Notes: generated from the letters alone by a model not told the origin. A stretch of 63,896 nt of DNA, filler included, from Streblomastix strix (GCA_008636045.1; 3 parts of 3 records of this genome joined end to end with filler, not necessarily neighbours in it), one strand, 5' to 3'. Positions 21,737-48,310 are shown, counted from the whole stretch's first letter. Translations and numbers: made by a program.

Positions 21737-21774
21737 ATTCAAATAAAAAATTTATTATAATTAATAAATACAAT

Positions 21775-21904
21775 CTGCGTATTATGACCCTTCCAGCTGT
21801 TCAATGTCAATAAGTGGATGTATATGTTAAAATCTTCTTTCAAAGGCTTAACTAACACAGGTAAGATCAGACTCATTTGATAGATCATTTTGGAGCTCTT
21901 ACAT
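21775..21904 (-). CDS. Exon of an unknown gene truncated at the contig end (mirror of 43193-43325)
   Basis: MQELQNDLSNESDLTCVSQAFERRFQHIHPLIDIEQLEGSQYAD followed by a GT donor. Confidence 0.45.
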
Positions 21905-22600
21905 ATTTATATATAGTCTATATGAGTAAAAATAACGAGAAAAAATATAATTAAAATATAAAAAAAAAATATTTTTCTCAAAAATAAAGGAATGTACAAT
22001 AAATAATTAAATAAATTTGATAATAGTGAAGTAATATTCATTGGTATAAAAAAATGTCTTAAATTTTGTACAAAATTTAAGATAGATCAGTGATTAAAAT
22101 AAGCATATTATTTTTTTTTTATCTTTGCTTTTAATTTCTGATTAATTTATACTAATTTGTTGGCAATTTATTTACATAATAATTCATTAATTTTTTAATA
22201 TAAAATTAATTTTATTTTAAAAGTATAATTATTAATACTAACAAGCCTTTGGCTCAAAAGCTCGATTTTGGCTCTATTAAATTTGGCTTGCCTGGCTGTA
22301 CCTAACAGGCTTACTAAGAATATATTTATTTTCCATTTTGAAAATGTTACTAATTAATAAGTCTACTATATACAAGGATAAATTCAATTGTTTTTATATA
22401 TGGAATTTTTATTAAGTATAAATACAAAAATAAAAACTAATCACATACACAAAAAAAGACTTTCAACCAATTATTAAATAACGTTAATTGAATATGTTTT
22501 GAGAAAATAGTTTAAATATATGATAAGAATTGAAGGGATATATTTCTGAATATCATTTATATAGAATAACAAATAGCTATAATGAATATAATATAATAAA

Positions 22601-25600
22601 TCAATTAAACCCAAATCCATTATCAGTGTTATTCAATGCGTAAAGAATACGCATTTCCATGATTTCTTCTAATTAATACAGTGGAATATCAATTGAATTA
22701 AAGCAAGTATGTCCTTTTGGAAGAGGAAACCTTAAAGATTCTTCTTCCAATTATTCAATTTATTATTTATTTATTTCAGATTTAAGTTAATCATTCAATC
22801 TAATTTCAATTAATAATTTCTCTTCCAATTCATTCAATTCCATTAAATGTGCTTATTCAAGATCATCATCATATTATTCAACATTAATAAGTGCTTAGTT
22901 AGATTTCTTCTCTATCTCACAAGTAACTGAATGAATAAGTTTTGTTATTTGAAGTGTCTATTACAATCTTTATCTTGATTTACGTGAATTTATACGTTGA
23001 ATGTTTAATTCTATTAATGGTTGGTTAGATCTGTTTTGAATTGTAGTTGTTTTAATATCTGCAATATAAGCAATCTTTTCATTTGCAAATGCTTTCAATT
23101 CTGCTTCATTAGCTAATTTCTATATTTCATTCGCATTTTAAGAAGAAAACTTAGTCAAACCTCGATTAAGATGAGTTCTCTGTTAAATGAGACTGTCAAA
23201 ATCTACAATTAAGTTTGAATTCATATTTATTTCATATTAATTATTCTCTATTTCACATTCTTCAATATCTTTCTTAATAAGTTCAATATTTCTTTTGTAT
23301 ATATTAAACATTAACATTTATTCAGCATTTTTGATTTTATTTTCATTAAGTGCTCGGATTGCACATTCATGAATATTAGCTTCAGCCTTAAGTGCATTAA
23401 TATATTCATCAATTCTTTTCTTATATTCAGATATCGATTCTCTATTCTATTTAACTGAAAACAATTATATTATTTCATCATTAATCTTCACATTACATGA
23501 AACCCATTTAATTTCAAATACATATCCATCGCTATTTAAAGGCAATCTTGCAAATCCACCAATGGGCAGATTTCTCACACCTGTACTAAACTATAATAAA
23601 TCCCTCCTTTATTTATCATTCATTCTTCTTATTATATTCCATATCCATTAACTTTATTATTCAGATTATTATCCTTTTATTCCATCATAATGGCAGAATC
23701 TTTCCCATTCAGATACATCAATTTCCTAAGATCCACAAATGATATCATCCAATTCTTTTGGAGTTAGTTATGTTGGTGTAATAATCTCTTTATATTTGGA
23801 ATTAGATTATTATTGATCATTAATATCATTCTCACGTGCATCATCTTATAATATCAATATATGATCTGAGAATAGATATTCATATGGAAGTGATTCTCTG
23901 AAACCTTGAAATAGAGCAGATCTTTATTTTATTGATTTATCAGATCCAAATATCTTTCTTTTTGCATATAGATTAATATATTCAGATTAATTCATGCTGT
24001 TAACTTATATATTCTGTCCATCTGGTTTAAGAGGAATATTTATTATTTTAATTTAATTATTTGTTTGATTAAATGATGAAGAAGAAGAAATATTATTATT
24101 ATTTTAATTTAATATATAATTATCTTAACCTTCTTCTTCAATAGATATCTCAAATGATAAATCAATCTATTTACAATATTCAGGATCATCCAACATATTC
24201 CTCATTCTTTGTGCAACTTCTTATTCTTCTTCTCCCAAATCTTCAATACAAGGAGATTATCCAAGTAACTGTCTCCATATTGAATAATCAAGACGACAGG
24301 ATGTTGATACTTTCTATAGAAGTAATACTTTACCAATCATTACTCCAGCTGTCCACCATGGAAGATAATCTTTTAGTTCTTCATCTGATAATTCATCTTG
24401 GTTCTTTATTAATGGTAAAGATTGTTTCTATTATGATTATATTGGACTCTTCCTGCATTTATCTTATCCATGATCATCTCCAAAAACAGTTAATCTCATT
24501 TCTTTCCCATGATGTCTGAATATTCCATTCAAAGGATTAGTTGCTTCTTTGAAATACTCAGTGCACCATTCAGCTAATAGACCTCCAGCATCGGATCCAA
24601 ATTCATTCTCAAATATAACATACGATTTCTTCTTTAATTTCTTCTCTTTACGCAAATTCCATAATTGAATTTCAGTTGTTTCTAATATTTTCTATCGATC
24701 AATTCTTACTCTTTGTTCACCACGAACATCATTCCTTATTAATGTAACTTCTGACAGATGAGGTCGAGGTGTTATTTATGATTTGTTATATTGTTCTGTT
24801 GATAGAATGAGTTCATATGTTCTGATGTATTACTTACTCGCATAGTTTGCTTCACGGAATGCAATCTTCTCTTCTTGTTATAATGGATCTTATTTTGAGT
24901 TATTTTATTTTGATTATCGAATTTTTTTTAATTCATTCAACCTCTTAATTGATTTCTCAATTTCCCTTCATGCTATTCTGATCTGCATTACAAGTCCATT
25001 TGTATAATATAATGAAGAGAGACTTAAATTCTTAATATGATTATTATATTCTTTTATTCTCCATTCAAGTTATTCTTATCTCTCTTATGCTGGAATATCA
25101 TACTGATCGCACTTCGATAAATCTCTAATTAAATCATTGATGGTTATTTATATAAGCATTTCATCTGATCTTTAGAAGAAAAGTTGCTTATTATGATGAA
25201 GTGGATTATATGCATTAAGTTTCAGCTTTAATTCTGATGAAAATATATTGGATTTGATTTCTGAAGATGATTATGGTTCTGATGAAGAAGAAGAAGATTA
25301 TTATTCTTTGGATTTTTCATCAAGCCCTTGTTTAAATTTTATTCTGCAGAAATATTCATGCAAACTAAAGACCTAGTTAGCAATTTATTTATTGCAGAAT
25401 TCGCATTATCTACTTATTTTTTCCTCAGAATTGAGATTAATTCCATACTCATTACCTGATGATCCTTATTATGAATTTGAGTAATAAGATGGTGAAACAT
25501 CACGATCAATATCATCTTCAAATGATGGAGTGATATGAAAACGTCTCATTCTATTAAATCCTTCAAATTGAAGTATTCATGAATGAATTATAGGAGGAGA

Positions 25601-26497
25601 TTGAGAAGATGAAAATGAAGGTGAAATTGAAGATGGATTAAATGAGAAACTATTTTGGCTTTATGTTCGCGTTAATTAAAAGGAAATACTTGAATTTAAA
25701 CTTTCAGATGAATGTAATGGACTTTATAATTAAAATTAAGATTAGGATTCATCATCATTACTTATGTATGGTGATTATCTAGGTGAAGAGGATTAAAATT
25801 CAAAGGAATCTGGGGGAAAATGTGTTAAGTGAAAATTTTACATATTACTAACATACGGAGATGGATGAAATATAAAAGGAAATTAGGGATTGTTTGAAGC
25901 GATAGGTGATTAATGCTAATTATTTTAATTGAAATTATTTGAGTTAGGTGGAAGAAGAAGACCATTTTAACGTTATTAACGTCGTATTTCATCTGAATCT
26001 ACTGGAAAGTTTGTTCTTGGTGGTGAATTAAGAATAGAAAAAGGAATTTGTTAAATGTTGTTCTATTATATTTGATTCCTTTATTCATTTGAAATTGGAG
26101 GATGAAGGAGATTTGATACTTGACTTCTTTATTCGCCATTATTTGAAGAAGGAGATTATCTAAGGTTGGATCTATAAACTTAATTATGCTCGTATAATTC
26201 AAGTGAATCAATCATATAAGGTTAAATATTTGAAGATAATTAATGAGGAGACTGAGACTATAAATGTAAATCAGATGGCTGTAATTAAACATTTGGTTGT
26301 GTTTCAGTATTTGCATCAGGTGTGTTTTGTTGAATTTGATGATCAATAGGATCTTACTAATGAGCTATATTTTATCCAGTTAAGTCAGACTACTCTGTTA
26401 AAGCACTCTGCTGAGCTCCTGTACTTGAACCTTGAGTGTTTTGCTGATTTTGTTGATCAACATGTTCTTACCTTTGTACTCCTGATTATTCAGTCAT
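22601..26497 (-). CDS. HECT-domain E3 ubiquitin ligase (mirror copy), apparently intronless, ~1298 aa
   Basis: Reverse complement of 38600-42496. Confidence 0.9.
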
Positions 26498-26759
26498 TTT
26501 AACTATAATTTTTATTACTATAAATAAAATATAAAAGATTGTTAAATAAAAATTGTTCAAGTACTTCAGTACTTAGCAGGAAATCAGTTTTTTTTCTATA
26601 TTTTGTTTATTTAGCTTTAAAATTTATTTTATTTTAAATAATTACTATTATTTTTAACTAGATAGCATATTGAACACAAATATTATAATATATAATAATA
26701 ATGATGCTTTATGACCGAGTAATAAAAATTTTGTACACAGTTATCTTTTTGATGCAATA

Positions 26760-28288
26760 TCATTCATTTCTACGCTTAGAGTCATTTGAATGGAAACACT
26801 CTGAAATTAATGAAAAGATCTTGAACTTAAAGTATAAATCTAAAAATGTACTGCTACTAGCATTGTTTCTGAATATATGTTGATAGAAATTAATATCATT
26901 AATGATAGCAAACAATTATATAATTTTATTGCTAATATTAAGAACAATTTAAACACACTTATCTGTTTTCATTTCTCTGAAAATCTTAAAGAATGATGGT
27001 CGTTCTTCTAATAAATAATTCTGTTATACTTATAATTAGTAGTCGTAACTAAGAAATTATTAATATAAAGTAGATCATATATGAATAAAAAAAAGAAATT
27101 TTGAATATGAATAAAATTAGTTTTCAGTTAATAATTAATTACCTTCTCTAATACATTTAAGACAAAGTAATTTGTGAAACAGGAACTGGTGAAATTTGAA
27201 GTGCATTCTATTAATATTAGTTCACTATTGCAAGAGTTGAGGGTGGAGGTGAGATATTTTAATTACTAAAATTATTTCTTTAATTTTCTCTTCCTTAATT
27301 TATTATTATTGCATCCCTTGGACTGGATATTTTGCATATTGGACATTCATTTTTGGATTATTGCCAGTGCACTGAACATTTTAAATGAACCTTAATAAAA
27401 TGATTATTATAATTAAAATAATATTAATAAATGTTTCTAATACAATAAAAAATATTAATATACTTAATGACCACATGCTCTGTATATTTCAACTCCATTT
27501 TCAAAAGACCAATCTATTATTTCTTCTTACTTCAATATAACATTAGAATTATTCATATTAATATCACTCGATTGTTCCTATTCAATAACTTAACTTCTAC
27601 TCCTGCTTCTGCTTCTACTTCTCGATAATGCTTCTCCTACTTACTGTTAATTATGATTTTATTTATCAAGTAGATCTCTATATATTTATGGACGATTAGC
27701 AATAATTTATTACTAAATTAATAAAATAAAGATTATTAATAATAAAATTTATAAGTTTAGTAATATCAAACATATTTCATTAATTTCTTAATATGTGCTT
27801 TAGGAAATTTCTTTAAACAAATTGGACAAAACTAACTGAATAATGGAATATGAGATGTTGGACAGTACTATATTTTTTATTGATATATCAAATATTATAA
27901 ATTGGGAAAACATAATTAAAATTAGAAGAAATTTAATTTATAATATACAAACACATACTTATAAATTCTGTTGTATTTCAAATATTTCTCTTTAATATCT
28001 TTTAATTCTTCTATTCTCTAAACAAATCTTAATTTTCCAATATGTCATAATTTTGAATAGGTAAATAATTGACATTAAAATCCAAATAGGAAAACTTATT
28101 AAGATCAGAATTAATTGAATAAGAAGGTAAAAGAAAGTTATGAACAATCTGCAAATGTGATATAAATAAAAATAATATATTATAATTTAATAATAAAAGT
28201 AAAATTAAAAGAATACACACATTAACCCAATCACAACAAATATTATTCCCCAAATTATATCTTTTGTTTCTTCCTCTAAATCGAACAT
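26760..28288 (-). CDS. Membrane-anchored RING-H2 E3 ligase (mirror copy)
   Basis: Reverse complement of 36809-38337. Confidence 0.75.
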
Positions 28289-28808
28289 CTTTGATATAAA
28301 CAAATATAAAACAAAATAATTAAGGAATTTTGTAGTAAATCGTAAATTATAGGTAGTATTTTATGTATAAGATAGTATACATTGAGTGCATCAACATTAA
28401 CTAAATTTATTTTCTTCGGGAGACCAGTATTAGTGGAGAGAATTGGATTAGATGTTTAGAAAATTTAGGCATTTTTACCGATATTTTCATAATTATATTT
28501 TATTTAATTTTATTGTAATATGTTCTATACAGCAATAAATTTAATATTTATATGAAATTGAAATAGAATTTAGGCTTATGGATGTCGTAAGAGTTGTTTT
28601 AAAAGCGAAAAAAATAAATATCCTGATTTTAGGCTAGTTTAGCTTAAATTTAGGTTTGTTATAAATTTATCATAATTTAAATTTACTTTAATTAGGTTAA
28701 AATCAAAATTTTTGGAAAAATTCAATAAAATTCGAAATTTTTTTTGAAGCGAAATGAATAAAGTAACGACTTGCAAGAGAATCAAAGAATGATCTTAAAA
28801 ATAAACTT

Positions 28809-29102
28809 ATGATGAGGATTATAACAACTGCATAAGGAAATTTGACTTCAATTTCAAGTTCTGGATACAATTCAGCATTCCCTTTGATCATGACTTATTT
28901 CATAATCTCTTTCATCAACAACCCTAACGGATTGTTTCCTATATCATAGTGCTTTGCTCTTCACCTTTTTTTATTAATTGGAAGCTTACTCCCCTATATG
29001 GCCTAATTCCTCGAACAAACAAGAATTTACGCTCTTAGCTCATCAGCCCCAGTCCTCGCGTCGCGAATAATACAATCTTTCACACCAGACGAGTACAGCA
29101 AA
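28809..29102 (+). pseudogene. 98-codon open frame, possibly the 5' part of a membrane-protein gene interrupted by the TIR element
   Basis: MMRIITTAQGNLTSISSSGYNSAFPLIMTYFIISF...FTPDEYSK has no TGA, lies divergent from the RING gene and abuts the 26-bp TIR. Confidence 0.35.
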
Positions 29103-29368
29103 GTAGTTATGAGAATATGGAGAGTGCCCCACATAGAAAAATAAAATAAAATAATGTTAATAAAATAATAATAATAAATAATAATAATAAATAATGAAAA
29201 TAAATAATATTAATAAAATAATTTAATAGAAAATAGACATTTGAATATGATTAATGAATATATGATATTGAATATAATTATTAGTATTGATTAATGAATT
29301 GATTAATGAATTTGATTAATGATGTATGATTTTTGAACGTATGGCACTCTCCATATTCTCATAACTAC
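29103..29368. mobile_element. 266-bp MITE-like element with perfect 26-bp terminal inverted repeats
   Basis: gtagttatgagaatatggagagtgcc (29103-29128) and ggcactctccatattctcataactac (29343-29368); AT-rich interior with gattaatgaat repeats; no TSD visible. Confidence 0.7.
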
Positions 29369-29626
29369 ATGGTGAGGTTAATGGATTTAGTTGAAGTTGC
29401 TACGCAGAAATTTATTAATGGAAACCTAAAATTATTGATGAATTCAGCCGTAAGCGGAGGTCATACCGACATAGTAAATTGAACATTGAATTTTGAATGT
29501 TTATGAATTCATTGAAGAAATCATTGATGAAATCCATTAGTAAATTGAACATAAAATATATTTGTTTTTATGCAATGAGCCGCAGGCGGAGGTCTAACGA
29601 CATGCACCGAGTCCTAAAACATCAAT

Positions 29627-32402
29627 AAAATATATGTTATTGGCACGTATAAATGGAATAGGTTATGAATGGCTTATGACTGCACCGAGTGCATCGAATG
29701 CATCGGGTCAGAAACTTTTATAAAAAGCTGTGGCCAACTGGACAACTGGCTAATAATTGAGAAAAAAATAAATTTATTTAATGTTTCACGTATTTATTTG
29801 TTCGTTGTTGTCTTCATTAGCATCTTCGTTGATATCTTGGTCTTCTTCTCTTAATCTATCATATAATTTTACTAAATCTTCATTCAATTTATATATCCAT
29901 TTTCGTTTTCCAAATATTGTTTTTTATATTCTTTGACATTTATTTTTGAGCTAAAATTAAAATGATTTCTCTTTAACATCGAATGGTTTAAATTATAATG
30001 CTATAGTGCAAGGCACGACTTCCTTAAAAGTTTGATAATTTTACAAGATTACATCATCAAGTTATGAACGTGATGCTCTAATTATGTCCTTTTTCGCTTT
30101 TGTGAATGGAATGATTCTTTAGTTCCAACCTTCAATATTACTGGTAATAAAATAGGTAAATAAATTATTGTAAAAGTCAGTTGTGAAACCATTAGATAAT
30201 GATGTGAAATATTCAACGTCATCCCTATGAACTGCCTTACATCTGCACACAACATAACGCCTATCATTCGCTTCAATTTTGATTGGGAAATCGTTATTGG
30301 TTACTATTATCAAATTTATTACATTTTCTGATGTTCGACGAGGTTAATTTTTTTCATTTATTCTTATTTGATTATCTGTTATAATCGACTTCAACGCATC
30401 CATGTTCGAATATCTTGCTTCTCCAAAATTTTTAAGTTCATTGGATATTCCAAGCATTATATTTTCAACGACAGAATTAAATTGGCCTGTAAATTCGCTA
30501 ATATCTGTAATATTTTTAATTGAATAACCAGCTAATAATTCACATAAAATATCAGTGAATCTATTTTTGCCTATACCTTGACTGCCTTACAATATCAATG
30601 TCACCTCTGATTTTACACCTACATTTTATATAATAAATGCAATCCAATTTAGAATATTATTATATAAATTTTCATCATCTGCTGCTATTGTTTTATATAT
30701 TAATTCTAAATAATCGTTAATAAGGTCCTCATTAACCGAAGATAATTATTAATATTTATAGCATTAAAATATACTGCAAACGTCTTATTCATCACTCATA
30801 AATTTTATTGCTCTCAGAGCAAATAAAGGATTAAATTTTTCTAGAACAAGTTTTAATGTTATTTTCTTTTATCCATCTTCCCATAATCTAACCATTTACA
30901 ACTAATCATAAGCTACTGTTTTATTTATGTATTAAATTTTATTCTTTTAATTTACTGCATCGTATTATTTAACTATAAATACTTAACCTCCATCACATGG
31001 AGCATATCGTAATATTCTAGTTAAGTCCTGAGCTATTGGTTCGTATTCATTATATTTATAGATACCATTTTATAACTTTTTTTACATATCAAATAGTGTG
31101 AAACTATCTTTTAAATCAATTTTTTATACTTCAATTTAATTTTTACATCTTTTTTCATTCACTAGCATAGGCATTACATATTCTTAATAATATTTTGGAT
31201 TATATTTTTTAATTATTTTTTATAAAACGAATGGATGCGATTATTTTTATTCATATCTTTTTTTAGCTGCATCAAATTATTATTTTGCTCTATCTGTTAA
31301 ATTATTATTAATTTTTATTTTTTCATATATTTCTTAAATGAATTGATTATCAATTCCTTCTATATTGATTATACTATTAATTGCTGCAAATAATGGAAGT
31401 AAAGTTATTTCATCATTTAAATTATGACTCTATGAGTCGTTATGTATTTCAAGACCACTAATTCCTTTACATAACATAATCACAAAATCCTTTTTCATAT
31501 CGATTAGTCCTGTTGGTTGTAATAGTGGCTTGTCTTATTCATTATATTATTCCTTTTAGTTTGGCATGACCTATTAATTAACATCCAAATCTATTCCGAA
31601 TATGTTCAAAATTTATCCTAAATCACATAAATTTATTTTATATAAATAATCATTTATAGCTTCATGTTAACATATAACTTTAATTTCTCCAATTTATTCG
31701 TTCTAATCTTCAATTTATTTTGTGGCTTTAACTCTATCACGTATTTTCGACCCGCATTACATAATCCATCTTTGTTTATCATCAATACATGCAAATATAT
31801 CCACATTAAAATTATCACATTTATAAACTTATATATTTGATGTTTTCTATAATTAAAATTCATTGATATCGCAATAAATATGAAGCCCTCCATGTGCTGT
31901 TTTGATTAATCCAACATTTTAAGGCATTTTTTCAATGATTGATTCTCGAATTTATTTTTAAATTAATTTATCTAAATTTTTATTTATATCAATATCAACA
32001 ACAGCAAGATTTTAACATTTTGATTTATCGATTACTCTACCTGAACATGATTTGCATGTCTTACCAATGATTGAAAATTTATTGTAATCATAAGTATTCA
32101 CATATAAATTTTAGATGCGTTCTTAAATTATTAATAATTAGCTAGTTTGTGCTTGATTGCCTTTTGATTCCATTAATATATTGATAAAAAGTTGAATTTA
32201 TATACAACAAACTCGTTTATTTTTAAAATAAGTTTATTTTTTTATTTTTTAAGTTTTTTATTTTTCATCAATAAATTGGCCAGTTGGCCAGATGGCCACA
32301 GCTTTTTATAAAAGTTTCTGACCCGATGCACTCGATGTACTCGGTGCAATCAATAGCCATTCATAACCTATTCCATTTTTTCATGCCAAAATCATATACT
32401 TT
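29627..32402 (-). mobile_element. IR-flanked primase-helicase unit (mirror copy)
   Basis: ~145-bp inverted repeats at 29627-29772 and 32257-32402 around a single ORF. Confidence 0.75.
29786..32173 (-). CDS. Prim-Pol-like primase fused to SF3/D5-like helicase (mirror copy)
   Basis: Reverse complement of 32924-35311. Confidence 0.88.
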
Positions 32403-32694
32403 CAGATTGAGCTAAAATGGTCATATTCGGAATCAGCGCATATGAATTGTATATATAGTTGATTATCAAATGATTTTAAAATTTCATGAAAATAAAGTTA
32501 TTTTTTATTTTTTTTATTTTTTTAATTCCTATATATAATGACTGTAAAAATTTAAGCCAAAAAATAAGCCAAAAAATTAATGTTTCCATATTGCCTTGAG
32601 AATGATGTTTATATACAATGTTGATACGTAGAATTCAAAAATGACGTTTAAATCGAAATCTTAAACGGTCGATGAATCCGAATATTGCAATCTA
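32403..32694. other. Non-palindromic 292-bp spacer at the palindrome axis
   Basis: Symmetry breaks here; residual degenerate inverted match (atattcggaatca / tgaatccgaatat) and a taagccaaaaaa doublet near the midpoint. Confidence 0.9.
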
Positions 32695-32840
32695 AAAGTA
32701 TATGATTTTGGCATGAAAAAATGGAATAGGTTATGAATGGCTATTGATTGCACCGAGTACATCGAGTGCATCGGGTCAGAAACTTTTATAAAAAGCTGTG
32801 GCCATCTGGCCAACTGGCCAATTTATTGATGAAAAATAAA
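32695..32840 (+). repeat. Upstream inverted repeat with iteron-like motifs
   Basis: 3x 9-mer tgcaccgag/tacatcgag/tgcatcggg (32749-32775), cttttataaaaag near-palindrome, 3x 8-mer tggccatc/tggccaac/tggccaat (32799-32822). Confidence 0.88.
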
Positions 32841-32923
32841 AAACTTAAAAAATAAAAAAATAAACTTATTTTAAAAATAAACGAGTTTGTTGTATATAAA
32901 TTCAACTTTTTATCAATATATTA

Positions 32924-35311
32924 ATGGAATCAAAAGGCAATCAAGCACAAACTAGCTAATTATTAATAATTTAAGAACGCATCTAAAATTTATATGTGAA
33001 TACTTATGATTACAATAAATTTTCAATCATTGGTAAGACATGCAAATCATGTTCAGGTAGAGTAATCGATAAATCAAAATGTTAAAATCTTGCTGTTGTT
33101 GATATTGATATAAATAAAAATTTAGATAAATTAATTTAAAAATAAATTCGAGAATCAATCATTGAAAAAATGCCTTAAAATGTTGGATTAATCAAAACAG
33201 CACATGGAGGGCTTCATATTTATTGCGATATCAATGAATTTTAATTATAGAAAACATCAAATATATAAGTTTATAAATGTGATAATTTTAATGTGGATAT
33301 ATTTGCATGTATTGATGATAAACAAAGATGGATTATGTAATGCGGGTCGAAAATACGTGATAGAGTTAAAGCCACAAAATAAATTGAAGATTAGAACGAA
33401 TAAATTGGAGAAATTAAAGTTATATGTTAACATGAAGCTATAAATGATTATTTATATAAAATAAATTTATGTGATTTAGGATAAATTTTGAACATATTCG
33501 GAATAGATTTGGATGTTAATTAATAGGTCATGCCAAACTAAAAGGAATAATATAATGAATAAGACAAGCCACTATTACAACCAACAGGACTAATCGATAT
33601 GAAAAAGGATTTTGTGATTATGTTATGTAAAGGAATTAGTGGTCTTGAAATACATAACGACTCATAGAGTCATAATTTAAATGATGAAATAACTTTACTT
33701 CCATTATTTGCAGCAATTAATAGTATAATCAATATAGAAGGAATTGATAATCAATTCATTTAAGAAATATATGAAAAAATAAAAATTAATAATAATTTAA
33801 CAGATAGAGCAAAATAATAATTTGATGCAGCTAAAAAAAGATATGAATAAAAATAATCGCATCCATTCGTTTTATAAAAAATAATTAAAAAATATAATCC
33901 AAAATATTATTAAGAATATGTAATGCCTATGCTAGTGAATGAAAAAAGATGTAAAAATTAAATTGAAGTATAAAAAATTGATTTAAAAGATAGTTTCACA
34001 CTATTTGATATGTAAAAAAAGTTATAAAATGGTATCTATAAATATAATGAATACGAACCAATAGCTCAGGACTTAACTAGAATATTACGATATGCTCCAT
34101 GTGATGGAGGTTAAGTATTTATAGTTAAATAATACGATGCAGTAAATTAAAAGAATAAAATTTAATACATAAATAAAACAGTAGCTTATGATTAGTTGTA
34201 AATGGTTAGATTATGGGAAGATGGATAAAAGAAAATAACATTAAAACTTGTTCTAGAAAAATTTAATCCTTTATTTGCTCTGAGAGCAATAAAATTTATG
34301 AGTGATGAATAAGACGTTTGCAGTATATTTTAATGCTATAAATATTAATAATTATCTTCGGTTAATGAGGACCTTATTAACGATTATTTAGAATTAATAT
34401 ATAAAACAATAGCAGCAGATGATGAAAATTTATATAATAATATTCTAAATTGGATTGCATTTATTATATAAAATGTAGGTGTAAAATCAGAGGTGACATT
34501 GATATTGTAAGGCAGTCAAGGTATAGGCAAAAATAGATTCACTGATATTTTATGTGAATTATTAGCTGGTTATTCAATTAAAAATATTACAGATATTAGC
34601 GAATTTACAGGCCAATTTAATTCTGTCGTTGAAAATATAATGCTTGGAATATCCAATGAACTTAAAAATTTTGGAGAAGCAAGATATTCGAACATGGATG
34701 CGTTGAAGTCGATTATAACAGATAATCAAATAAGAATAAATGAAAAAAATTAACCTCGTCGAACATCAGAAAATGTAATAAATTTGATAATAGTAACCAA
34801 TAACGATTTCCCAATCAAAATTGAAGCGAATGATAGGCGTTATGTTGTGTGCAGATGTAAGGCAGTTCATAGGGATGACGTTGAATATTTCACATCATTA
34901 TCTAATGGTTTCACAACTGACTTTTACAATAATTTATTTACCTATTTTATTACCAGTAATATTGAAGGTTGGAACTAAAGAATCATTCCATTCACAAAAG
35001 CGAAAAAGGACATAATTAGAGCATCACGTTCATAACTTGATGATGTAATCTTGTAAAATTATCAAACTTTTAAGGAAGTCGTGCCTTGCACTATAGCATT
35101 ATAATTTAAACCATTCGATGTTAAAGAGAAATCATTTTAATTTTAGCTCAAAAATAAATGTCAAAGAATATAAAAAACAATATTTGGAAAACGAAAATGG
35201 ATATATAAATTGAATGAAGATTTAGTAAAATTATATGATAGATTAAGAGAAGAAGACCAAGATATCAACGAAGATGCTAATGAAGACAACAACGAACAAA
35301 TAAATACGTGA
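32924..35311 (+). CDS. Prim-Pol-like primase fused to SF3/D5-like helicase, intronless, 795 aa
   Basis: One TGA-free frame under TAR=Gln: LAVVDID (DxD), KTAHGGLHIY (AEP motif II His), Walker A LILQGSQGIGKN, Walker-B region GISNELK, LKSIITD..IRINEKN.P, motif C IIVTNN, Arg finger DRRYVV. Confidence 0.9.
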
Positions 35312-35324
35312 AACATTAAATAAA

Positions 35325-35470
35325 TTTATTTTTTTCTCAATTATTAGCCAGTTGTCCAGTTGGCCACAGCTTTTTATAAAAGTTTCTGACCCGATGCATT
35401 CGATGCACTCGGTGCAGTCATAAGCCATTCATAACCTATTCCATTTATACGTGCCAATAACATATATTTT
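35325..35470 (-). repeat. Downstream inverted repeat of the primase-helicase unit
   Basis: tggccacagctttttataaaagtttctgacccgatgca...agccattcataacctattccattt is the reverse complement of the upstream repeat cores. Confidence 0.88.
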
Positions 35471-35484
35471 ATTGATGTTTTAGG

Positions 35485-35660
35485 ACTCGGTGCATGTCGT
35501 TAGACCTCCGCCTGCGGCTCATTGCATAAAAACAAATATATTTTATGTTCAATTTACTAATGGATTTCATCAATGATTTCTTCAATGAATTCATAAACAT
35601 TCAAAATTCAATGTTCAATTTACTATGTCGGTATGACCTCCGCTTACGGCTGAATTCATC
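35485..35660. repeat. GC-rich direct repeats with mini-hairpins beyond the downstream IR (mirror at ~29437-29612)
   Basis: atgtcgttagacctccgcctgcggctca and atgtcggtatgacctccgcttacggctga; atgttcaatttacta twice; one extra iteron copy actcggtgca. Confidence 0.7.
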
Positions 35661-35728
35661 AATAATTTTAGGTTTCCATTAATAAATTTCTGCGTAGCAA
35701 CTTCAACTAAATCCATTAACCTCACCAT

Positions 35729-35994
35729 GTAGTTATGAGAATATGGAGAGTGCCATACGTTCAAAAATCATACATCATTAATCAAATTCATTAATCAATT
35801 CATTAATCAATACTAATAATTATATTCAATATCATATATTCATTAATCATATTCAAATGTCTATTTTCTATTAAATTATTTTATTAATATTATTTATTTT
35901 CATTATTTATTATTATTATTTATTATTATTATTTTATTAACATTATTTTATTTTATTTTTCTATGTGGGGCACTCTCCATATTCTCATAACTAC
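35729..35994. mobile_element. 266-bp MITE-like element with 26-bp TIRs (mirror copy)
   Basis: gtagttatgagaatatggagagtgcc ... ggcactctccatattctcataactac. Confidence 0.7.
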
Positions 35995-36808
35995 TTTGCT
36001 GTACTCGTCTGGTGTGAAAGATTGTATTATTCGCGACGCGAGGACTGGGGCTGATGAGCTAAGAGCGTAAATTCTTGTTTGTTCGAGGAATTAGGCCATA
36101 TAGGGGAGTAAGCTTCCAATTAATAAAAAAAGGTGAAGAGCAAAGCACTATGATATAGGAAACAATCCGTTAGGGTTGTTGATGAAAGAGATTATGAAAT
36201 AAGTCATGATCAAAGGGAATGCTGAATTGTATCCAGAACTTGAAATTGAAGTCAAATTTCCTTATGCAGTTGTTATAATCCTCATCATAAGTTTATTTTT
36301 AAGATCATTCTTTGATTCTCTTGCAAGTCGTTACTTTATTCATTTCGCTTCAAAAAAAATTTCGAATTTTATTGAATTTTTCCAAAAATTTTGATTTTAA
36401 CCTAATTAAAGTAAATTTAAATTATGATAAATTTATAACAAACCTAAATTTAAGCTAAACTAGCCTAAAATCAGGATATTTATTTTTTTCGCTTTTAAAA
36501 CAACTCTTACGACATCCATAAGCCTAAATTCTATTTCAATTTCATATAAATATTAAATTTATTGCTGTATAGAACATATTACAATAAAATTAAATAAAAT
36601 ATAATTATGAAAATATCGGTAAAAATGCCTAAATTTTCTAAACATCTAATCCAATTCTCTCCACTAATACTGGTCTCCCGAAGAAAATAAATTTAGTTAA
36701 TGTTGATGCACTCAATGTATACTATCTTATACATAAAATACTACCTATAATTTACGATTTACTACAAAATTCCTTAATTATTTTGTTTTATATTTGTTTA
36801 TATCAAAG

Positions 36809-38337
36809 ATGTTCGATTTAGAGGAAGAAACAAAAGATATAATTTGGGGAATAATATTTGTTGTGATTGGGTTAATGTGTGTATTCTTTTAATTTTACTT
36901 TTATTATTAAATTATAATATATTATTTTTATTTATATCACATTTGCAGATTGTTCATAACTTTCTTTTACCTTCTTATTCAATTAATTCTGATCTTAATA
37001 AGTTTTCCTATTTGGATTTTAATGTCAATTATTTACCTATTCAAAATTATGACATATTGGAAAATTAAGATTTGTTTAGAGAATAGAAGAATTAAAAGAT
37101 ATTAAAGAGAAATATTTGAAATACAACAGAATTTATAAGTATGTGTTTGTATATTATAAATTAAATTTCTTCTAATTTTAATTATGTTTTCCCAATTTAT
37201 AATATTTGATATATCAATAAAAAATATAGTACTGTCCAACATCTCATATTCCATTATTCAGTTAGTTTTGTCCAATTTGTTTAAAGAAATTTCCTAAAGC
37301 ACATATTAAGAAATTAATGAAATATGTTTGATATTACTAAACTTATAAATTTTATTATTAATAATCTTTATTTTATTAATTTAGTAATAAATTATTGCTA
37401 ATCGTCCATAAATATATAGAGATCTACTTGATAAATAAAATCATAATTAACAGTAAGTAGGAGAAGCATTATCGAGAAGTAGAAGCAGAAGCAGGAGTAG
37501 AAGTTAAGTTATTGAATAGGAACAATCGAGTGATATTAATATGAATAATTCTAATGTTATATTGAAGTAAGAAGAAATAATAGATTGGTCTTTTGAAAAT
37601 GGAGTTGAAATATACAGAGCATGTGGTCATTAAGTATATTAATATTTTTTATTGTATTAGAAACATTTATTAATATTATTTTAATTATAATAATCATTTT
37701 ATTAAGGTTCATTTAAAATGTTCAGTGCACTGGCAATAATCCAAAAATGAATGTCCAATATGCAAAATATCCAGTCCAAGGGATGCAATAATAATAAATT
37801 AAGGAAGAGAAAATTAAAGAAATAATTTTAGTAATTAAAATATCTCACCTCCACCCTCAACTCTTGCAATAGTGAACTAATATTAATAGAATGCACTTCA
37901 AATTTCACCAGTTCCTGTTTCACAAATTACTTTGTCTTAAATGTATTAGAGAAGGTAATTAATTATTAACTGAAAACTAATTTTATTCATATTCAAAATT
38001 TCTTTTTTTTATTCATATATGATCTACTTTATATTAATAATTTCTTAGTTACGACTACTAATTATAAGTATAACAGAATTATTTATTAGAAGAACGACCA
38101 TCATTCTTTAAGATTTTCAGAGAAATGAAAACAGATAAGTGTGTTTAAATTGTTCTTAATATTAGCAATAAAATTATATAATTGTTTGCTATCATTAATG
38201 ATATTAATTTCTATCAACATATATTCAGAAACAATGCTAGTAGCAGTACATTTTTAGATTTATACTTTAAGTTCAAGATCTTTTCATTAATTTCAGAGTG
38301 TTTCCATTCAAATGACTCTAAGCGTAGAAATGAATGA
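36809..38337 (+). CDS. Membrane-anchored RING-H2 E3 ligase, multi-exon
   Basis: N-terminal hydrophobic segments (IIWGIIFVVIGLFITFFYLLIQLILILISFPIWILMSIIYLF); FCPICLKKF ... ACGHQ|VHLKCSVHWQQSKNECPICK; probable TGA at 38335-38337. Confidence 0.75.
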
Positions 38338-38599
38338 TATTGCATCAAAAAGATAACTGTGTACAAAATTTTTATTACTCGGTCATAAAGCATCATTATT
38401 ATTATATATTATAATATTTGTGTTCAATATGCTATCTAGTTAAAAATAATAGTAATTATTTAAAATAAAATAAATTTTAAAGCTAAATAAACAAAATATA
38501 GAAAAAAAACTGATTTCCTGCTAAGTACTGAAGTACTTGAACAATTTTTATTTAACAATCTTTTATATTTTATTTATAGTAATAAAAATTATAGTTAAA

Positions 38600-41500
38600 A
38601 TGACTGAATAATCAGGAGTACAAAGGTAAGAACATGTTGATCAACAAAATCAGCAAAACACTCAAGGTTCAAGTACAGGAGCTCAGCAGAGTGCTTTAAC
38701 AGAGTAGTCTGACTTAACTGGATAAAATATAGCTCATTAGTAAGATCCTATTGATCATCAAATTCAACAAAACACACCTGATGCAAATACTGAAACACAA
38801 CCAAATGTTTAATTACAGCCATCTGATTTACATTTATAGTCTCAGTCTCCTCATTAATTATCTTCAAATATTTAACCTTATATGATTGATTCACTTGAAT
38901 TATACGAGCATAATTAAGTTTATAGATCCAACCTTAGATAATCTCCTTCTTCAAATAATGGCGAATAAAGAAGTCAAGTATCAAATCTCCTTCATCCTCC
39001 AATTTCAAATGAATAAAGGAATCAAATATAATAGAACAACATTTAACAAATTCCTTTTTCTATTCTTAATTCACCACCAAGAACAAACTTTCCAGTAGAT
39101 TCAGATGAAATACGACGTTAATAACGTTAAAATGGTCTTCTTCTTCCACCTAACTCAAATAATTTCAATTAAAATAATTAGCATTAATCACCTATCGCTT
39201 CAAACAATCCCTAATTTCCTTTTATATTTCATCCATCTCCGTATGTTAGTAATATGTAAAATTTTCACTTAACACATTTTCCCCCAGATTCCTTTGAATT
39301 TTAATCCTCTTCACCTAGATAATCACCATACATAAGTAATGATGATGAATCCTAATCTTAATTTTAATTATAAAGTCCATTACATTCATCTGAAAGTTTA
39401 AATTCAAGTATTTCCTTTTAATTAACGCGAACATAAAGCCAAAATAGTTTCTCATTTAATCCATCTTCAATTTCACCTTCATTTTCATCTTCTCAATCTC
39501 CTCCTATAATTCATTCATGAATACTTCAATTTGAAGGATTTAATAGAATGAGACGTTTTCATATCACTCCATCATTTGAAGATGATATTGATCGTGATGT
39601 TTCACCATCTTATTACTCAAATTCATAATAAGGATCATCAGGTAATGAGTATGGAATTAATCTCAATTCTGAGGAAAAAATAAGTAGATAATGCGAATTC
39701 TGCAATAAATAAATTGCTAACTAGGTCTTTAGTTTGCATGAATATTTCTGCAGAATAAAATTTAAACAAGGGCTTGATGAAAAATCCAAAGAATAATAAT
39801 CTTCTTCTTCTTCATCAGAACCATAATCATCTTCAGAAATCAAATCCAATATATTTTCATCAGAATTAAAGCTGAAACTTAATGCATATAATCCACTTCA
39901 TCATAATAAGCAACTTTTCTTCTAAAGATCAGATGAAATGCTTATATAAATAACCATCAATGATTTAATTAGAGATTTATCGAAGTGCGATCAGTATGAT
40001 ATTCCAGCATAAGAGAGATAAGAATAACTTGAATGGAGAATAAAAGAATATAATAATCATATTAAGAATTTAAGTCTCTCTTCATTATATTATACAAATG
40101 GACTTGTAATGCAGATCAGAATAGCATGAAGGGAAATTGAGAAATCAATTAAGAGGTTGAATGAATTAAAAAAAATTCGATAATCAAAATAAAATAACTC
40201 AAAATAAGATCCATTATAACAAGAAGAGAAGATTGCATTCCGTGAAGCAAACTATGCGAGTAAGTAATACATCAGAACATATGAACTCATTCTATCAACA
40301 GAACAATATAACAAATCATAAATAACACCTCGACCTCATCTGTCAGAAGTTACATTAATAAGGAATGATGTTCGTGGTGAACAAAGAGTAAGAATTGATC
40401 GATAGAAAATATTAGAAACAACTGAAATTCAATTATGGAATTTGCGTAAAGAGAAGAAATTAAAGAAGAAATCGTATGTTATATTTGAGAATGAATTTGG
40501 ATCCGATGCTGGAGGTCTATTAGCTGAATGGTGCACTGAGTATTTCAAAGAAGCAACTAATCCTTTGAATGGAATATTCAGACATCATGGGAAAGAAATG
40601 AGATTAACTGTTTTTGGAGATGATCATGGATAAGATAAATGCAGGAAGAGTCCAATATAATCATAATAGAAACAATCTTTACCATTAATAAAGAACCAAG
40701 ATGAATTATCAGATGAAGAACTAAAAGATTATCTTCCATGGTGGACAGCTGGAGTAATGATTGGTAAAGTATTACTTCTATAGAAAGTATCAACATCCTG
40801 TCGTCTTGATTATTCAATATGGAGACAGTTACTTGGATAATCTCCTTGTATTGAAGATTTGGGAGAAGAAGAATAAGAAGTTGCACAAAGAATGAGGAAT
40901 ATGTTGGATGATCCTGAATATTGTAAATAGATTGATTTATCATTTGAGATATCTATTGAAGAAGAAGGTTAAGATAATTATATATTAAATTAAAATAATA
41001 ATAATATTTCTTCTTCTTCATCATTTAATCAAACAAATAATTAAATTAAAATAATAAATATTCCTCTTAAACCAGATGGACAGAATATATAAGTTAACAG
41101 CATGAATTAATCTGAATATATTAATCTATATGCAAAAAGAAAGATATTTGGATCTGATAAATCAATAAAATAAAGATCTGCTCTATTTCAAGGTTTCAGA
41201 GAATCACTTCCATATGAATATCTATTCTCAGATCATATATTGATATTATAAGATGATGCACGTGAGAATGATATTAATGATCAATAATAATCTAATTCCA
41301 AATATAAAGAGATTATTACACCAACATAACTAACTCCAAAAGAATTGGATGATATCATTTGTGGATCTTAGGAAATTGATGTATCTGAATGGGAAAGATT
41401 CTGCCATTATGATGGAATAAAAGGATAATAATCTGAATAATAAAGTTAATGGATATGGAATATAATAAGAAGAATGAATGATAAATAAAGGAGGGATTTA

Positions 41501-42496
41501 TTATAGTTTAGTACAGGTGTGAGAAATCTGCCCATTGGTGGATTTGCAAGATTGCCTTTAAATAGCGATGGATATGTATTTGAAATTAAATGGGTTTCAT
41601 GTAATGTGAAGATTAATGATGAAATAATATAATTGTTTTCAGTTAAATAGAATAGAGAATCGATATCTGAATATAAGAAAAGAATTGATGAATATATTAA
41701 TGCACTTAAGGCTGAAGCTAATATTCATGAATGTGCAATCCGAGCACTTAATGAAAATAAAATCAAAAATGCTGAATAAATGTTAATGTTTAATATATAC
41801 AAAAGAAATATTGAACTTATTAAGAAAGATATTGAAGAATGTGAAATAGAGAATAATTAATATGAAATAAATATGAATTCAAACTTAATTGTAGATTTTG
41901 ACAGTCTCATTTAACAGAGAACTCATCTTAATCGAGGTTTGACTAAGTTTTCTTCTTAAAATGCGAATGAAATATAGAAATTAGCTAATGAAGCAGAATT
42001 GAAAGCATTTGCAAATGAAAAGATTGCTTATATTGCAGATATTAAAACAACTACAATTCAAAACAGATCTAACCAACCATTAATAGAATTAAACATTCAA
42101 CGTATAAATTCACGTAAATCAAGATAAAGATTGTAATAGACACTTCAAATAACAAAACTTATTCATTCAGTTACTTGTGAGATAGAGAAGAAATCTAACT
42201 AAGCACTTATTAATGTTGAATAATATGATGATGATCTTGAATAAGCACATTTAATGGAATTGAATGAATTGGAAGAGAAATTATTAATTGAAATTAGATT
42301 GAATGATTAACTTAAATCTGAAATAAATAAATAATAAATTGAATAATTGGAAGAAGAATCTTTAAGGTTTCCTCTTCCAAAAGGACATACTTGCTTTAAT
42401 TCAATTGATATTCCACTGTATTAATTAGAAGAAATCATGGAAATGCGTATTCTTTACGCATTGAATAACACTGATAATGGATTTGGGTTTAATTGA
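38600..42496 (+). CDS. HECT-domain E3 ubiquitin ligase, apparently intronless, ~1298 aa
   Basis: VIFENEFGSDAGGLLAEW; AGVMIGKVLL; DIPLKPDGQNIQVNSMNQSEYINLY; TPKELDDIICGSQEIDVSEW; LLQFSTGVRNLPIGGFARL; catalytic LPKGHTCFNSIDIPLY ... GFGFN-TGA. Confidence 0.92.
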
Positions 42497-43192
42497 TTTA
42501 TTATATTATATTCATTATAGCTATTTGTTATTCTATATAAATGATATTCAGAAATATATCCCTTCAATTCTTATCATATATTTAAACTATTTTCTCAAAA
42601 CATATTCAATTAACGTTATTTAATAATTGGTTGAAAGTCTTTTTTTGTGTATGTGATTAGTTTTTATTTTTGTATTTATACTTAATAAAAATTCCATATA
42701 TAAAAACAATTGAATTTATCCTTGTATATAGTAGACTTATTAATTAGTAACATTTTCAAAATGGAAAATAAATATATTCTTAGTAAGCCTGTTAGGTACA
42801 GCCAGGCAAGCCAAATTTAATAGAGCCAAAATCGAGCTTTTGAGCCAAAGGCTTGTTAGTATTAATAATTATACTTTTAAAATAAAATTAATTTTATATT
42901 AAAAAATTAATGAATTATTATGTAAATAAATTGCCAACAAATTAGTATAAATTAATCAGAAATTAAAAGCAAAGATAAAAAAAAAATAATATGCTTATTT
43001 TAATCACTGATCTATCTTAAATTTTGTACAAAATTTAAGACATTTTTTTATACCAATGAATATTACTTCACTATTATCAAATTTATTTAATTATTTATTG
43101 TACATTCCTTTATTTTTGAGAAAAATATTTTTTTTTTATATTTTAATTATATTTTTTCTCGTTATTTTTACTCATATAGACTATATATAAAT

Positions 43193-43325
43193 ATGTAAGA
43201 GCTCCAAAATGATCTATCAAATGAGTCTGATCTTACCTGTGTTAGTTAAGCCTTTGAAAGAAGATTTTAACATATACATCCACTTATTGACATTGAACAG
43301 CTGGAAGGGTCATAATACGCAGATT
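43193..43325 (+). CDS. Exon of an unknown gene truncated at the contig end
   Basis: MQELQNDLSNESDLTCVSQAFERRFQHIHPLIDIEQLEGSQYAD then a gtattt donor. Confidence 0.45.
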
Positions 43326-43360
43326 GTATTTATTAATTATAATAAATTTTTTATTTGAAT

Positions 43361-43460: not shown

Positions 43461-44989
43461 ATTAATATCTTAATTATGTAATATAATATTAAGATATATA
43501 TTCAAATCATCAAGTTCGCCAAAAGCCACTTTTAGGAAAATTTTCATTTTCTGCCATCATATGATGATGACTAGGAGACGAAGATGAAGTATCTATGTAG
43601 ACGAATATTGGACAATGATTTGAAGGCGGCGCGAAGAGAGAACTTGGAAGATTTATTTATAAAAAAAAGGAGAAAAAGAGCCGCGATACGAAAGATATAA
43701 AGCCGGTTCAATCATAAAAAAGAGCGCGTGGCGAAGATGGGGAACATATATAGAAGATGATGATTGATTTGGAACAGGGAGACTGGGACGAAGGCTGTGA
43801 TGAGCCCATCTAAGGATTTCCGGAAAAACCGAACGAACGACATAGACAATAAGATGCAAGGTAGGGAAGGATGAATAATAGTTAATAAGAGTAGAGAACA
43901 CATGATAGAACGCATTAGAGCCAGGCAAAGTAGATGGCTGAAATTTTAAACAAGAAAATGGCAGTGCAAGCATCAGCATTTAAGCCGCTGGGCTATTCAG
44001 ATAGATCATTCGTATTTTGCGACCTTGGCAAATTCAGATATATGCGATCGGACTGGAAAGTAGTAGCGCCAAAAGGCAGGACAAAGCTGAAATAGGGCGA
44101 TTAATACGCAGAAGCGATGACCGGGCTTATTGATGCATAATAGGCTTTGCTGGTTGCAACTGAGAATGGATTAGGTGGTAATAATAACATTGAGTAGATA
44201 GCACATGCCTATGCAATGCTGTGCGTGGGCGCAAATGCGGTAGCGCAGCTGAGAGAATTTGCAAATGCACCAAGCGAACTAAGAGGAATAGAGGGAGGTA
44301 GCATTTTACCTGCAAATATATTCTTTGATGATAATACTGAAAGTATTAAAAGGTTTCTGAACCTTAAAATGATGGAATTGTTGCATTATCCATATCAACA
44401 AGAGCTGTCCGCATACCCACAGCCTTAAATCCAGAAACCATAGTTGCAGCAGCATTTGTTCCAACCGTTTTAAACACTCGAATCTTTCCAGCCATTATAG
44501 ATAAAGCAAGCACTGTATGCTGCAAGCTAGTTCAATTATGGACGACGAACAGCAGCAGGAAAAGGATTTCAATCAAGAGGACGCGGAGGAAGAGACAGGG
44601 GAGCCTTTGGCTACAATTTTATACCATTAGGAGGGTAGTGAGTCAGTGTGGAATTGAGTAATTAGAGTGGATGTAATGAAGTGGTGAATGATAGTGGGGA
44701 ATAAGGAGTGTAAATTAGTGAGAGAAAGAGTGTTTAGGATGAGGAATCGTTGGGTGAGGGTTTTTACAGTACAATAAACCGTATCCCAACACAAATATGA
44801 TTGGAGCCCGTTTATAACTTTATATTAGAGCTTATCAAAAAATAAATATGGACAAAACAATTAAGGTAGGATGCTACGCAAAATGGAAGAATCAGGAGAA
44901 CAAGACAATATTGGCGCGGAAGCGAAGAGTAATTTATTTTAACGGGAACGAGGAATAGGTGGAGTAACTGGATCAATTGATAAGGGAAG

Positions 44990-46700
44990 AATTGGATCAA
45001 AGAAAAATTAAAGTGATTAACTAATAGGAAGTCTTATTGTGGAACAGAACGTTTGAAATAAAGAAGTCGGGGGGAGGATTGAAGAGAATGATATAATGCC
45101 GACCACTGAACACACAACTGAAATTCCAAAAATTTTACAATGAACGATCTGAATAAGGCACTTGAAATATAGAATAAAGACGGTTGGGCATGCCTAATGG
45201 ACATTAAATCAGCATTTAGCCATGTTGCAATAACTGGGGAGTTAGAGAAATACCTGGCCTTTACGCATATGGAGAAACATTATATGCAAGTGGGAATGCC
45301 ATTCGGAATCTCGATAGCACCGAGAACCTTTGCAAAGACAATTTAAATAACAATAGATAGAGTGAGAAGTAAGAGTCTAGTATGAAAAATTAATTGTGCA
45401 GACGATATTTTGTTCCTGATGCAGGATTAGTAGTAATTGGAGAAAGAAATAGGGTGGATTGTATAGGAGTTTAGGAAATATGGATGGGTGATTAACGAGA
45501 GTAAGAGTAGCTTGAAGCCAGAATAGCAATTTGTGTTCCTGGGATAGATGTATAAATAAGCAACAATGAAAATTTAATTGACTAACGATAAGAGGAAGGA
45601 GTTGAGAGCACTAGTTCAAAGATTGATGAATCTAATAATGCAATAAAGATCGCAAAGGATTAGAAGCATGACAATTTTGGTTGGTAAACTTAGGTTTTCC
45701 ACTCCATAATTCAAACGAGGAGGACTGCATCTATAGCAAATAAATAAATAAATGAGCAAAGCGGCGAGAGTAACGGGCTGGACAAGCGAAATGATAGTAA
45801 CGAAGAAGATTCTGACAGAGCTGTATTGTTGGATGAATCAGCTGGAGAGTAACAAATCAAAGATGATAGATAAGAGAAAAAACCAGATAATAATTCAGAC
45901 ATACGCATCAATTTCGGGATCGGTTGCGAGTGTGATAAGAATAATGTGCGAATTAGAAGATTATACAAGCAATAGAAAGCGGATATGGAGAATTCGAACA
46001 TGCGAGAGATATTAACGATATACAGAGCTGTACAGTTGCCGAAAGAATATAATAACCTATAGGAATATGGTTGAATAATGATAGAAACAGGTAATACAAC
46101 AGCTTGTTTCTCAATAGCAAAAGCAAAGGCAAAATATCATTTGAGGAAAGCGGTAGATTCGATCTTATAAATAGAAGTGGAAAATGGATGGACATCAATA
46201 ATAAGACATATCGCTGGGAAATCGAATAAAGAAGCGGACGCGTTTTCAAGGTTATCGATGGCAGGGGAAAACTCAATAAGGAAGGATGTTTTAGCGGATG
46301 TTTTGAAGGACTGGCAAGTAGAGATAACAGTGGATTTATTTCCAGCAAGAAATAATGCTAAACATAAGAGATATTACACATTGGGGAAGGACTGGAAAGC
46401 CGAAGGACGAGATTCGATGAGAATCTCCTGGGAAGAAGAGTTTGCACTAATACACCCACCGATACCAATAATATATAGGATAATAAGGAAAATATTAGAG
46501 GAGAGAGCTTAAGGAATAATGATAGTACTATGTTGGCCTGGGTAGGTTTGGTGGACATAGTTATAGGAAATAACAGTGAGAGAGACGGAATTGGGAGAAA
46601 ACGAGAAGGTATTGGAGATGGGATCGAAGATTAGGAAGAAGAATCTGAAAGTCTCTCCGGGGAAGATATTAGCTTTAGAGGTAAACAGGGATAAGATGGA
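44990..46700 (+). pseudogene. DIRS pol (RT-RNase H-methyltransferase-like), disrupted
   Basis: Frameshift near 45130, in-frame TGA near 45381, YxDD changed to CADD. Confidence 0.85.
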
Positions 46701-47245
46701 GCAAGATTATTCCGAAATGCTTTGGAAGCTTCCGGATTTTCAAGAAATGCAATTAGATCGATAATAGGTGACTGGCATGGAAGTTGGAGAAAGCACGTCT
46801 GCGTGTTATCAGCCATTTGGAAGTATTTGAGAAGGAGAGGAATAAGTGAGGGGCAGTTAACAAGGATAGATAAACCATATATAATAATAGCAGAATATAT
46901 AACAAACATATTAAAGGATTTGTCGGAAGCATTCGTAATGCAAGCAAGAACTTCAGTATCAACAATGTTTGATTTAGTGAGAAGAGAAGAAATGGATATA
47001 AAAAATAAAGTTATAGAATAGCTAATGTTAAAACCAGTTTCAAATATGAGGAAAGTTATCAGAGAAGTGACAACCTGGAAAATGGAGTAGCTACTCGACT
47101 ACATTGCGAAGCTGAGGGTATAAAGAGATGAAGAAAAACTAACAGTTACTGAGTTAAGGAGAGTAGTCATAACTATATTTATGGTAAATTCAGTCTTAAG
47201 ATTATCAGAAATTCAAAGAGTTATGCTAAATATAACGTAAATAGA
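46690..47245 (+). pseudogene. DIRS tyrosine recombinase, 3'-truncated
   Basis: ASGFSRNAIRSIIGDWHGSWRKH...WKMEQLLDYI...LRLSE (first catalytic Arg box); no HxxR or Tyr region follows. Confidence 0.75.
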
Positions 47246-47247
47246 AT

Positions 47248-48151: not shown

Positions 48152-48310
48152 TAAATAAATTCAATTTTAAATAATTTTATTTTTTTTATGAAATTATTGT
48201 TTTGTACAAAGAAAGAAATATTTATTAAACTAGTTTTAAATAATTTCAGCAATTTACAATTAATGAAGATAAATTAATAAATTGCATTATAAATTGATCG
48301 TTTGAAAGAA
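48152..48310. repeat. Direct repeat block C (copy at ~50637-50790)
   Basis: aaataaattcaattttaaataattt...tttgtacaaagaaagaaatatttattaaa...ttgcattataaattgatcgtttga at both sites. Confidence 0.88.

Follow-up and report, generated by a model that had tools for sequence, protein, structure and literature searches.

The window, that is, the whole stretch of DNA that we analyzed (63,896 nucleotides, filler included, from Streblomastix strix), consists of three contigs joined by filler. The contig described here is the one at 21737-43360 (21,624 bp). The entire contig is a palindrome, in which two arms of 10,666 bp each are separated by a spacer of 292 bp and bounded by N-linkers. No inverted duplication was present in the two remaining contigs of the window. 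The contig at 21737-43360 ends at the linkers and carries no tandem telomere-type motifs; no tRNA was found in the window, and no Rfam match was obtained in 21737-32900. The features are as follows (IR, inverted repeat).

21737..32402, no strand: arm 1, 0 mismatches against the reverse complement of arm 2
22601..24499, minus strand: main exon of a HECT E3 ligase, a host gene; mirror at 40598-42496, plus strand
27124..27498, minus strand: possible RING-finger exon
29627..29754, plus strand: downstream IR of helicase unit 1; mirror at 35343-35470
29786..32173, minus strand: primase-helicase ORF, 795 aa, code 6; mirror at 32924-35311, plus strand
32275..32402, minus strand: upstream IR of helicase unit 1, 128 bp; mirror at 32695-32822
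32403..32694, no strand: spacer, 24% GC
32403..32447, minus strand: extension of the repeat end within the spacer, left side; 11 bases are inserted here compared with the other two repeat ends
32530..32694, plus strand: spacer, right half; belongs to a repeat family with many copies, with variants in all 4 runs compared
32660..32694, plus strand: extension of the repeat end within the spacer, right side, from the three-end alignment
32695..43360, no strand: arm 2, exact mirror of arm 1 by sequence comparison
32750..32822, plus strand: origin-like IR core

Almost no long frames were obtained under translation table 11, and table 6 opened ORFs of 795 aa and 632 aa. The 632-aa ORF, present in each arm, is the HECT gene (PF00632, E 2.8e-45). 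An earlier note on this DNA had described two identical 10,666-bp arms around a 292-bp spacer, with primase-helicase units placed head to head and with duplicated HECT and RING genes. The identity of the arms and the head-to-head arrangement of the two 795-aa ORFs agreed with our comparison, and so did the duplication of HECT. In contrast, the RING gene was represented by a weak partial match to zf-RING_2 with an E value of 0.014, which is below the Pfam cut-off.

Both protein matches of the HECT ORF were labelled Streblomastix strix. The near-identical one is a two-member cluster, both gene models lying on a single public contig that is as long as this one (21,624 bp), and is thus not independent evidence; the protein collection contained no second contig with the HECT gene at 90% identity or more.

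Each of the two 795-aa ORFs lies inside a pair of 128-bp IRs, and it is the single ORF between them in a unit of about 2.8 kb. The upstream and downstream IRs are 89% identical, with 14 mismatches in 128 and a longest exact run of 38. The core of the IR contains three 9-bp repeats, a near-palindromic AT-rich core and three copies of TGGCCA at an 8-bp period, and we regard it as origin-like.

The helicase half of the ORF matched the C-terminal region of NrS-1 by profile (E 1e-26), and it contains a Walker A/B helicase domain, as in an AEP PrimPol fused to an NrS-1/SF3-type helicase. The structure predicted for the protein had a pLDDT of 83.5, and its best Foldseek match was NrS-1, followed by the ASFV PrimPol and the SaPI5 primase-helicase. 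Residues D60, D62, H98 and D125 and the Walker motifs were conserved in 97-100% of 45 relatives. D60 and D62, H98, and D125 may be the AEP catalytic motifs DxD, H, and D, respectively. Pfam detected no primase family in the ORF, and the N-terminal part gave a single weak sequence match among solved primases (ORF904, E 0.59). Judging from the motifs, the ORF904 match and the naming of some entries in the Trichomonas vaginalis cluster (for example, "Prim-pol domain family"), the N-terminal part may be a primase. We also considered whether the ORF is a decayed helicase copy and rejected this, as it shows 28 departures from the conserved columns, compared to 18-30 in the other Streblomastix copies aligned.

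We then analyzed the axis of the palindrome. The earlier note had placed the inner edge of each arm (32402/32695) at the outer end of the IR. The alignment of the three repeat ends did not bear this out, because the homology of all three extends past this edge. Over the 32 columns that precede the junction, 17 of the 21 aligned bases match between the left and the right of the spacer, which are also separated by an 11-base gap in the alignment, and the downstream repeat end agrees with the right of the spacer in 12 of 18 aligned columns. The arm edge is thus the last mismatch between two diverged copies, and it lies inside the repeat. A link between the axis and the IR therefore exists, as the note had claimed, but the axis lies within a native imperfect inverted pair of repeat ends and not at the tip of one IR.

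At the same single base, the identity steps from about 80% (17/21 plus the 11-base indel) to 100% (10,666/10,666), a pattern that suggests a recent template switch. At the divergence of the unit's own two ends (14/128), the probability that an independent copy is identical over the whole IR is about 4e-7. Thus, one side is a recent copy of the other, whether the copying took place in the cell, during amplification in vitro or during assembly; the copied arm could be either of the two.

The spacer as a whole folded no better than its shuffles (z -1.29; 17 of 200 shuffles were as good). Its first 45 and last 45 bases, on the other hand, pair at -15.3 kcal/mol, a duplex that was matched by 4 of 1000 shuffles and by 1 of 2000 genomic windows drawn; with a cruder anchored alignment, 6 of 200 shuffles were as good.

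Sequence words of the window were found in four runs of termite gut metagenomes, in proportions of 0.73, 0.13, 0.04 and 0.04, representing 2 samples from 2 studies. The run with 0.73 of the words may be the source of the window and hence is not independent. The run search listed no RNA run among those sharing window words. We compared assembled contigs of these runs with 32530-32822 (293 bp), which comprises the right half of the spacer and the IR. The numbers of contigs on this interval, which are contig counts and not copy numbers, were 1025, 72, 24 and 56 in the four runs, and 136 of the 1025 contigs in run X1 were at least 99% alike. All 30 of the 30 bins of the interval were covered in all four runs, and the IR part at 32750-32822 had the heaviest contig coverage in each. 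The right half of the spacer is therefore a many-copy repeat and not a unique hinge.

Among the 32 contigs listed of 1178, none spanned all of 32530-32822. One contig of run X2 bridged the right junction under a 31-base rule, with 8 differences in 76 (about 89% identity). This contig comes from the second study, and it suggests that such a form of the right junction is usual in the family and shows no visible sign of chimerism, a point against the amplification fold-back considered below. Three more of the 32 crossed the right junction, by 3, 11 and 15 bases; the contig crossing by 15, from run X3, resembles by eye another IR variant beyond the junction, which hints weakly at a different native continuation. 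At least one other copy of the right spacer, in a contig of run X1, is followed by about 360 bases of unlike sequence. The window's base at 32670 was absent from every compared contig of the four runs, while its IR base at 32743 occurred in X1 at low depth. The absence is weak evidence for the fold-back considered below, because contigs drop rare variants and the filter omits records.

Because the homology enters the spacer from both sides and the right half is many-copy, two related, diverged ends of a multi-copy primase-helicase element stand natively head to head at this site, with about 230 unpaired bases between them.

We considered how such a site could have become a perfect palindrome. 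The earlier note leaned toward an artefact, and in this it holds up; we also regard it as quite likely that the palindrome is an artefact of one kind or another and not a feature of the cell. The reason that the note gave, the shared end point of the two arms, does not discriminate between a real palindrome and an artefact. De Bruijn graph assemblers collapse a perfect palindrome into one path that is used twice, and the arms then end equally in either case. A comparison of read depth between arms and spacer would likewise be confounded, because the right spacer is many-copy and a fold-back in the tube also doubles the arm.

The Streblomastix strix draft is described as derived from whole-genome-amplified, micromanipulated cells (PMC8767320), and its assembly is called fragmentary and single-cell (PMC10703272); the DNA of the window was presumably amplified. 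During MDA, displaced 3' ends are reported to prime on nearby complementary sequence, and among 475 MDA chimeras, 85% were inversions, for most of which 2-21 nt of complementarity had served for priming (PMC1855051, Lasken and Stockwell 2007). Palindromic amplification products are described as well known (PMC6218980, Warris et al. 2018; PMC13265396).

We think it moderately probable that a fold-back during amplification made the palindrome. The process would have started from the diverged element ends standing head to head across the 292-bp spacer. During whole-genome amplification, a displaced strand would fold back on the paired ends, and its 3' end would prime in the shared sequence just past the last mismatch, perhaps aided by the stem of the spacer ends. 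The priming strand would then copy the adjoining 10.7 kb, the native flank on one side would be lost or left unassembled, and the assembler would write the product out as a perfect palindrome. As a consequence, the second copies of the helicase, HECT and RING would be absent from the cell.

The contig resembles MDA fold-back chimeras in that an exact inverted copy of nearby sequence adjoins complementarity that pre-existed at the junction, with a non-palindromic interval between the arms, in a lineage sequenced from amplified DNA. It differs from them in that MDA chimeras switch at a chance match of 2-21 nt, whereas the switch here lies inside a long native imperfect inverted repeat and the product is a consensus contig. 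In short reads, fold-back junctions are described as generally too infrequent to influence the assembly (PMC6218980, PMC13265396), so the site must be a hotspot or the product of an early jackpot event. Fold-back may well recur at a native inverted repeat that is imperfect and has a short loop, which would answer this objection. As a separate point, one that counts against placing the fold-back in the tube, a recent fold-back in the cell leaves an identical sequence signature.

The same contig could have been produced by the assembler alone, by traversing a single arm twice without any fold-back molecule. In that case, both ends of the spacer would enter near-identical copies, possibly two young head-to-head helicase units that were collapsed, and the second host flank would be missing from the data. 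The abundance of the IR and spacer in run X1 fits this route, and equal arm ends with zero mismatches would be expected of a path used twice. However, it requires an exact match of about k bases beside sequence that is only about 80% alike. With k assumed to be 55, the probability of a 55-base exact run at the end-to-end divergence of the unit is 0.0017, and the longest run is 38. This route also requires that the second flank be absent. We consider it rather unlikely. A real and very recent palindrome in the cell seems distinctly unlikely. It would have arisen from a break or a stalled fork beside the head-to-head ends, by fold-back or template switching, possibly aided by an origin within the element end. 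The interrupted inverted repeat that pre-existed at the junction, the origin-like core and the intact primase-helicase motifs are consistent with this origin. The search of the protein collection, however, found the palindrome in no independent record, and a route to the same product by artefact is described as common in amplified DNA (PMC1855051). The loop, moreover, is at least about 230 bp (about 230-290 bp; spacer 292 bp), outside the 28-80 bp of closely spaced repeats of the Tetrahymena or ODIRA type. The least likely case, a very unlikely one, is a linear molecule with a hairpin end, in which the spacer would be the imperfectly paired terminal loop of an element-capped chromosome fragment, read around by amplification. 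The spacer is AT-rich with ends that pair, its many copies are what one would expect of an end structure in common use, and the contig lacks telomere-type motifs. Yet the spacer in full length has no folding advantage over its shuffles, the other right-spacer copy in X1 continues into unlike sequence, and chromosome ends in a related oxymonad are described as capped by telomeric repeats (PMC8767320).

The comparison with known palindromes is as follows. The Tetrahymena rDNA, as described in PMC5182062, is also a palindrome of about 21 kb with a short inverted-repeat seed and a non-palindromic spacer. Its seed, however, is a pair of identical 42-bp repeats with a 28-bp spacer beside an adjoining breakage site, and its arms are capped by telomeres. 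In the present contig, in contrast, the seed copies are diverged, no telomere motifs are present and the cargo is ordinary host genes. In yeast ODIRA, as described in PMC10766183, the junction also lies at a pre-existing interrupted inverted repeat, and a possible origin is nearby, as here. The repeats preferred there are 2-14 bp in length at 40-80 bp, and the second junction or triplication was not seen in our contig.

If a fold-back during amplification made the palindrome, it follows that amplified single-cell assemblies can contain perfect palindromes that are hinged on repeat ends, and that such palindromes inflate gene counts; HECT is annotated twice on the public contig. If the palindrome is real, a minimal virus-derived replication module would be linked to the amplification of host genes in an uncultured eukaryote. 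A bolder version, namely that oxymonads harbor a family of minimal one-gene replicons, each a PrimPol-helicase between origin-like inverted ends, which stand head to head and cause neighboring host genes to be amplified as inverted copies in vivo, with this contig as a fresh event, seems to us quite improbable.

The native features of the locus are the head-to-head pair of diverged repeat ends and the lone primase-helicase unit. The lone unit of the PrimPol/NrS-1-helicase type with its origin-like inverted ends is probably a real feature, and it looks like an under-described repeat family. Our literature search, with most subscription papers outside its reach, did not find it described as an element in its own right.

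The helicase half is akin to the primase-helicases of Maverick/Polinton-like elements and to the NrS-1 polymerase. Endogenous Polinton-like viruses are reported in Streblomastix strix (PMC10120064), and the genes counted for the T. vaginalis Maverick are reported to include a primase-domain gene (PMC7845603). The Pfam scan of the neighboring ORFs and frames detected no capsid, integrase, packaging ATPase or PolB beside the unit, and its size is far from the 15-30 kb of such elements. A search for a target-site duplication among 6536 candidate end pairs found none; 22 of the pairs had a direct repeat of at least 5 bp, and none of these 22 had inverted termini. Thus, the unit may work like a Polinton-type replication module, but it falls outside the Polintons because its gene stands alone in about 2.8 kb. 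A remnant of a tyrosine recombinase, suspected by eye at 28706-29131, was rejected, being without Pfam support.

An exact search with the IR core found 0 loci in the metagenome, genome and viral collections. At the protein level, 135 helicase relatives were obtained among 6277 candidates, and at least 35 of the 120 listed were labelled Streblomastix strix. The others listed were from Monocercomonoides, Trichomonas, Histomonas and Tritrichomonas, together with many metagenomic proteins. The relatives in Trichomonas vaginalis form a cluster of 198 members, some of which are named Prim-pol, and the family is expanded in metamonads. Relatives detected by protein profile were absent from the 109 candidate stretches of viral contigs and present in 2 of the 428 candidate stretches of metagenome contigs. 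Neither of these two has inverted ends like those of the unit, so that this end architecture is unconfirmed elsewhere. Both match in the helicase part only, and one lies beside a Pox_A32 ATPase and the other beside an HNH gene.

The inverted repeats that bound the primase-helicase unit contain a candidate origin-like core, which is located as follows.

32750-32822 and 29680-29754: candidate origin-like core in each inverted repeat, with three 9-bp repeats, an AT-rich near-palindrome and three TGGCCA motifs

When contigs of public termite gut metagenome runs were compared with 32530-32822, this core was the most deeply covered part of the compared stretch in all four runs. The loose ends of the matching contigs point to many subfamilies.

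Among the matches listed, many full-length helicase relatives of metagenomic origin sit on contigs that are only some 2.3-3.2 kb long. Such lengths would be consistent with other gut protists carrying many copies of a stand-alone unit of about 2.8 kb. The same picture could arise from the shortness of metagenomic contigs. Two further metagenomic contigs carry relatives without the N-terminal part.

L001, 1-2876: helicase relative adjoining a Pox_A32 packaging ATPase; an array of repeats with a 20-bp period is present at 901-1013
L002, 1-2232: helicase relative adjoining an HNH endonuclease

The surroundings of both are a Polinton-like neighbourhood. In alignment A1 of primase-helicase relatives, all five Streblomastix-type copies depart from the family-conserved columns at 18-30 positions, versus 3 in the median relative, a shift across the whole lineage.

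The window also contains the following repeats and gene.

29103-29368 and 29440-29600: a further inverted repeat, degenerate (67 bp, 73%), and short duplicated motifs, directly beyond the helicase unit's downstream end; possibly the remnant of another repeat
17227-19500: ORF of 757 aa that carries a thioredoxin domain at its N-terminus (E 4.9e-09)
47243-50799: dispersed direct repeats on contig 3 (130-235 bp, about 89-90% alike, spaced about 2.3-2.5 kb)

By eye, a host gene with introns on the plus strand seems to be cut by the outer end of the palindromic contig at 21737-22341; a Pfam scan of this interval returned no match. The block at 43757-47528 is richer in GC. Its frames, inspected in the same way, resemble a decayed DIRS-type retroelement with reverse transcriptase-like and tyrosine recombinase-like stretches, and a Pfam scan of the block gave that assignment no support.
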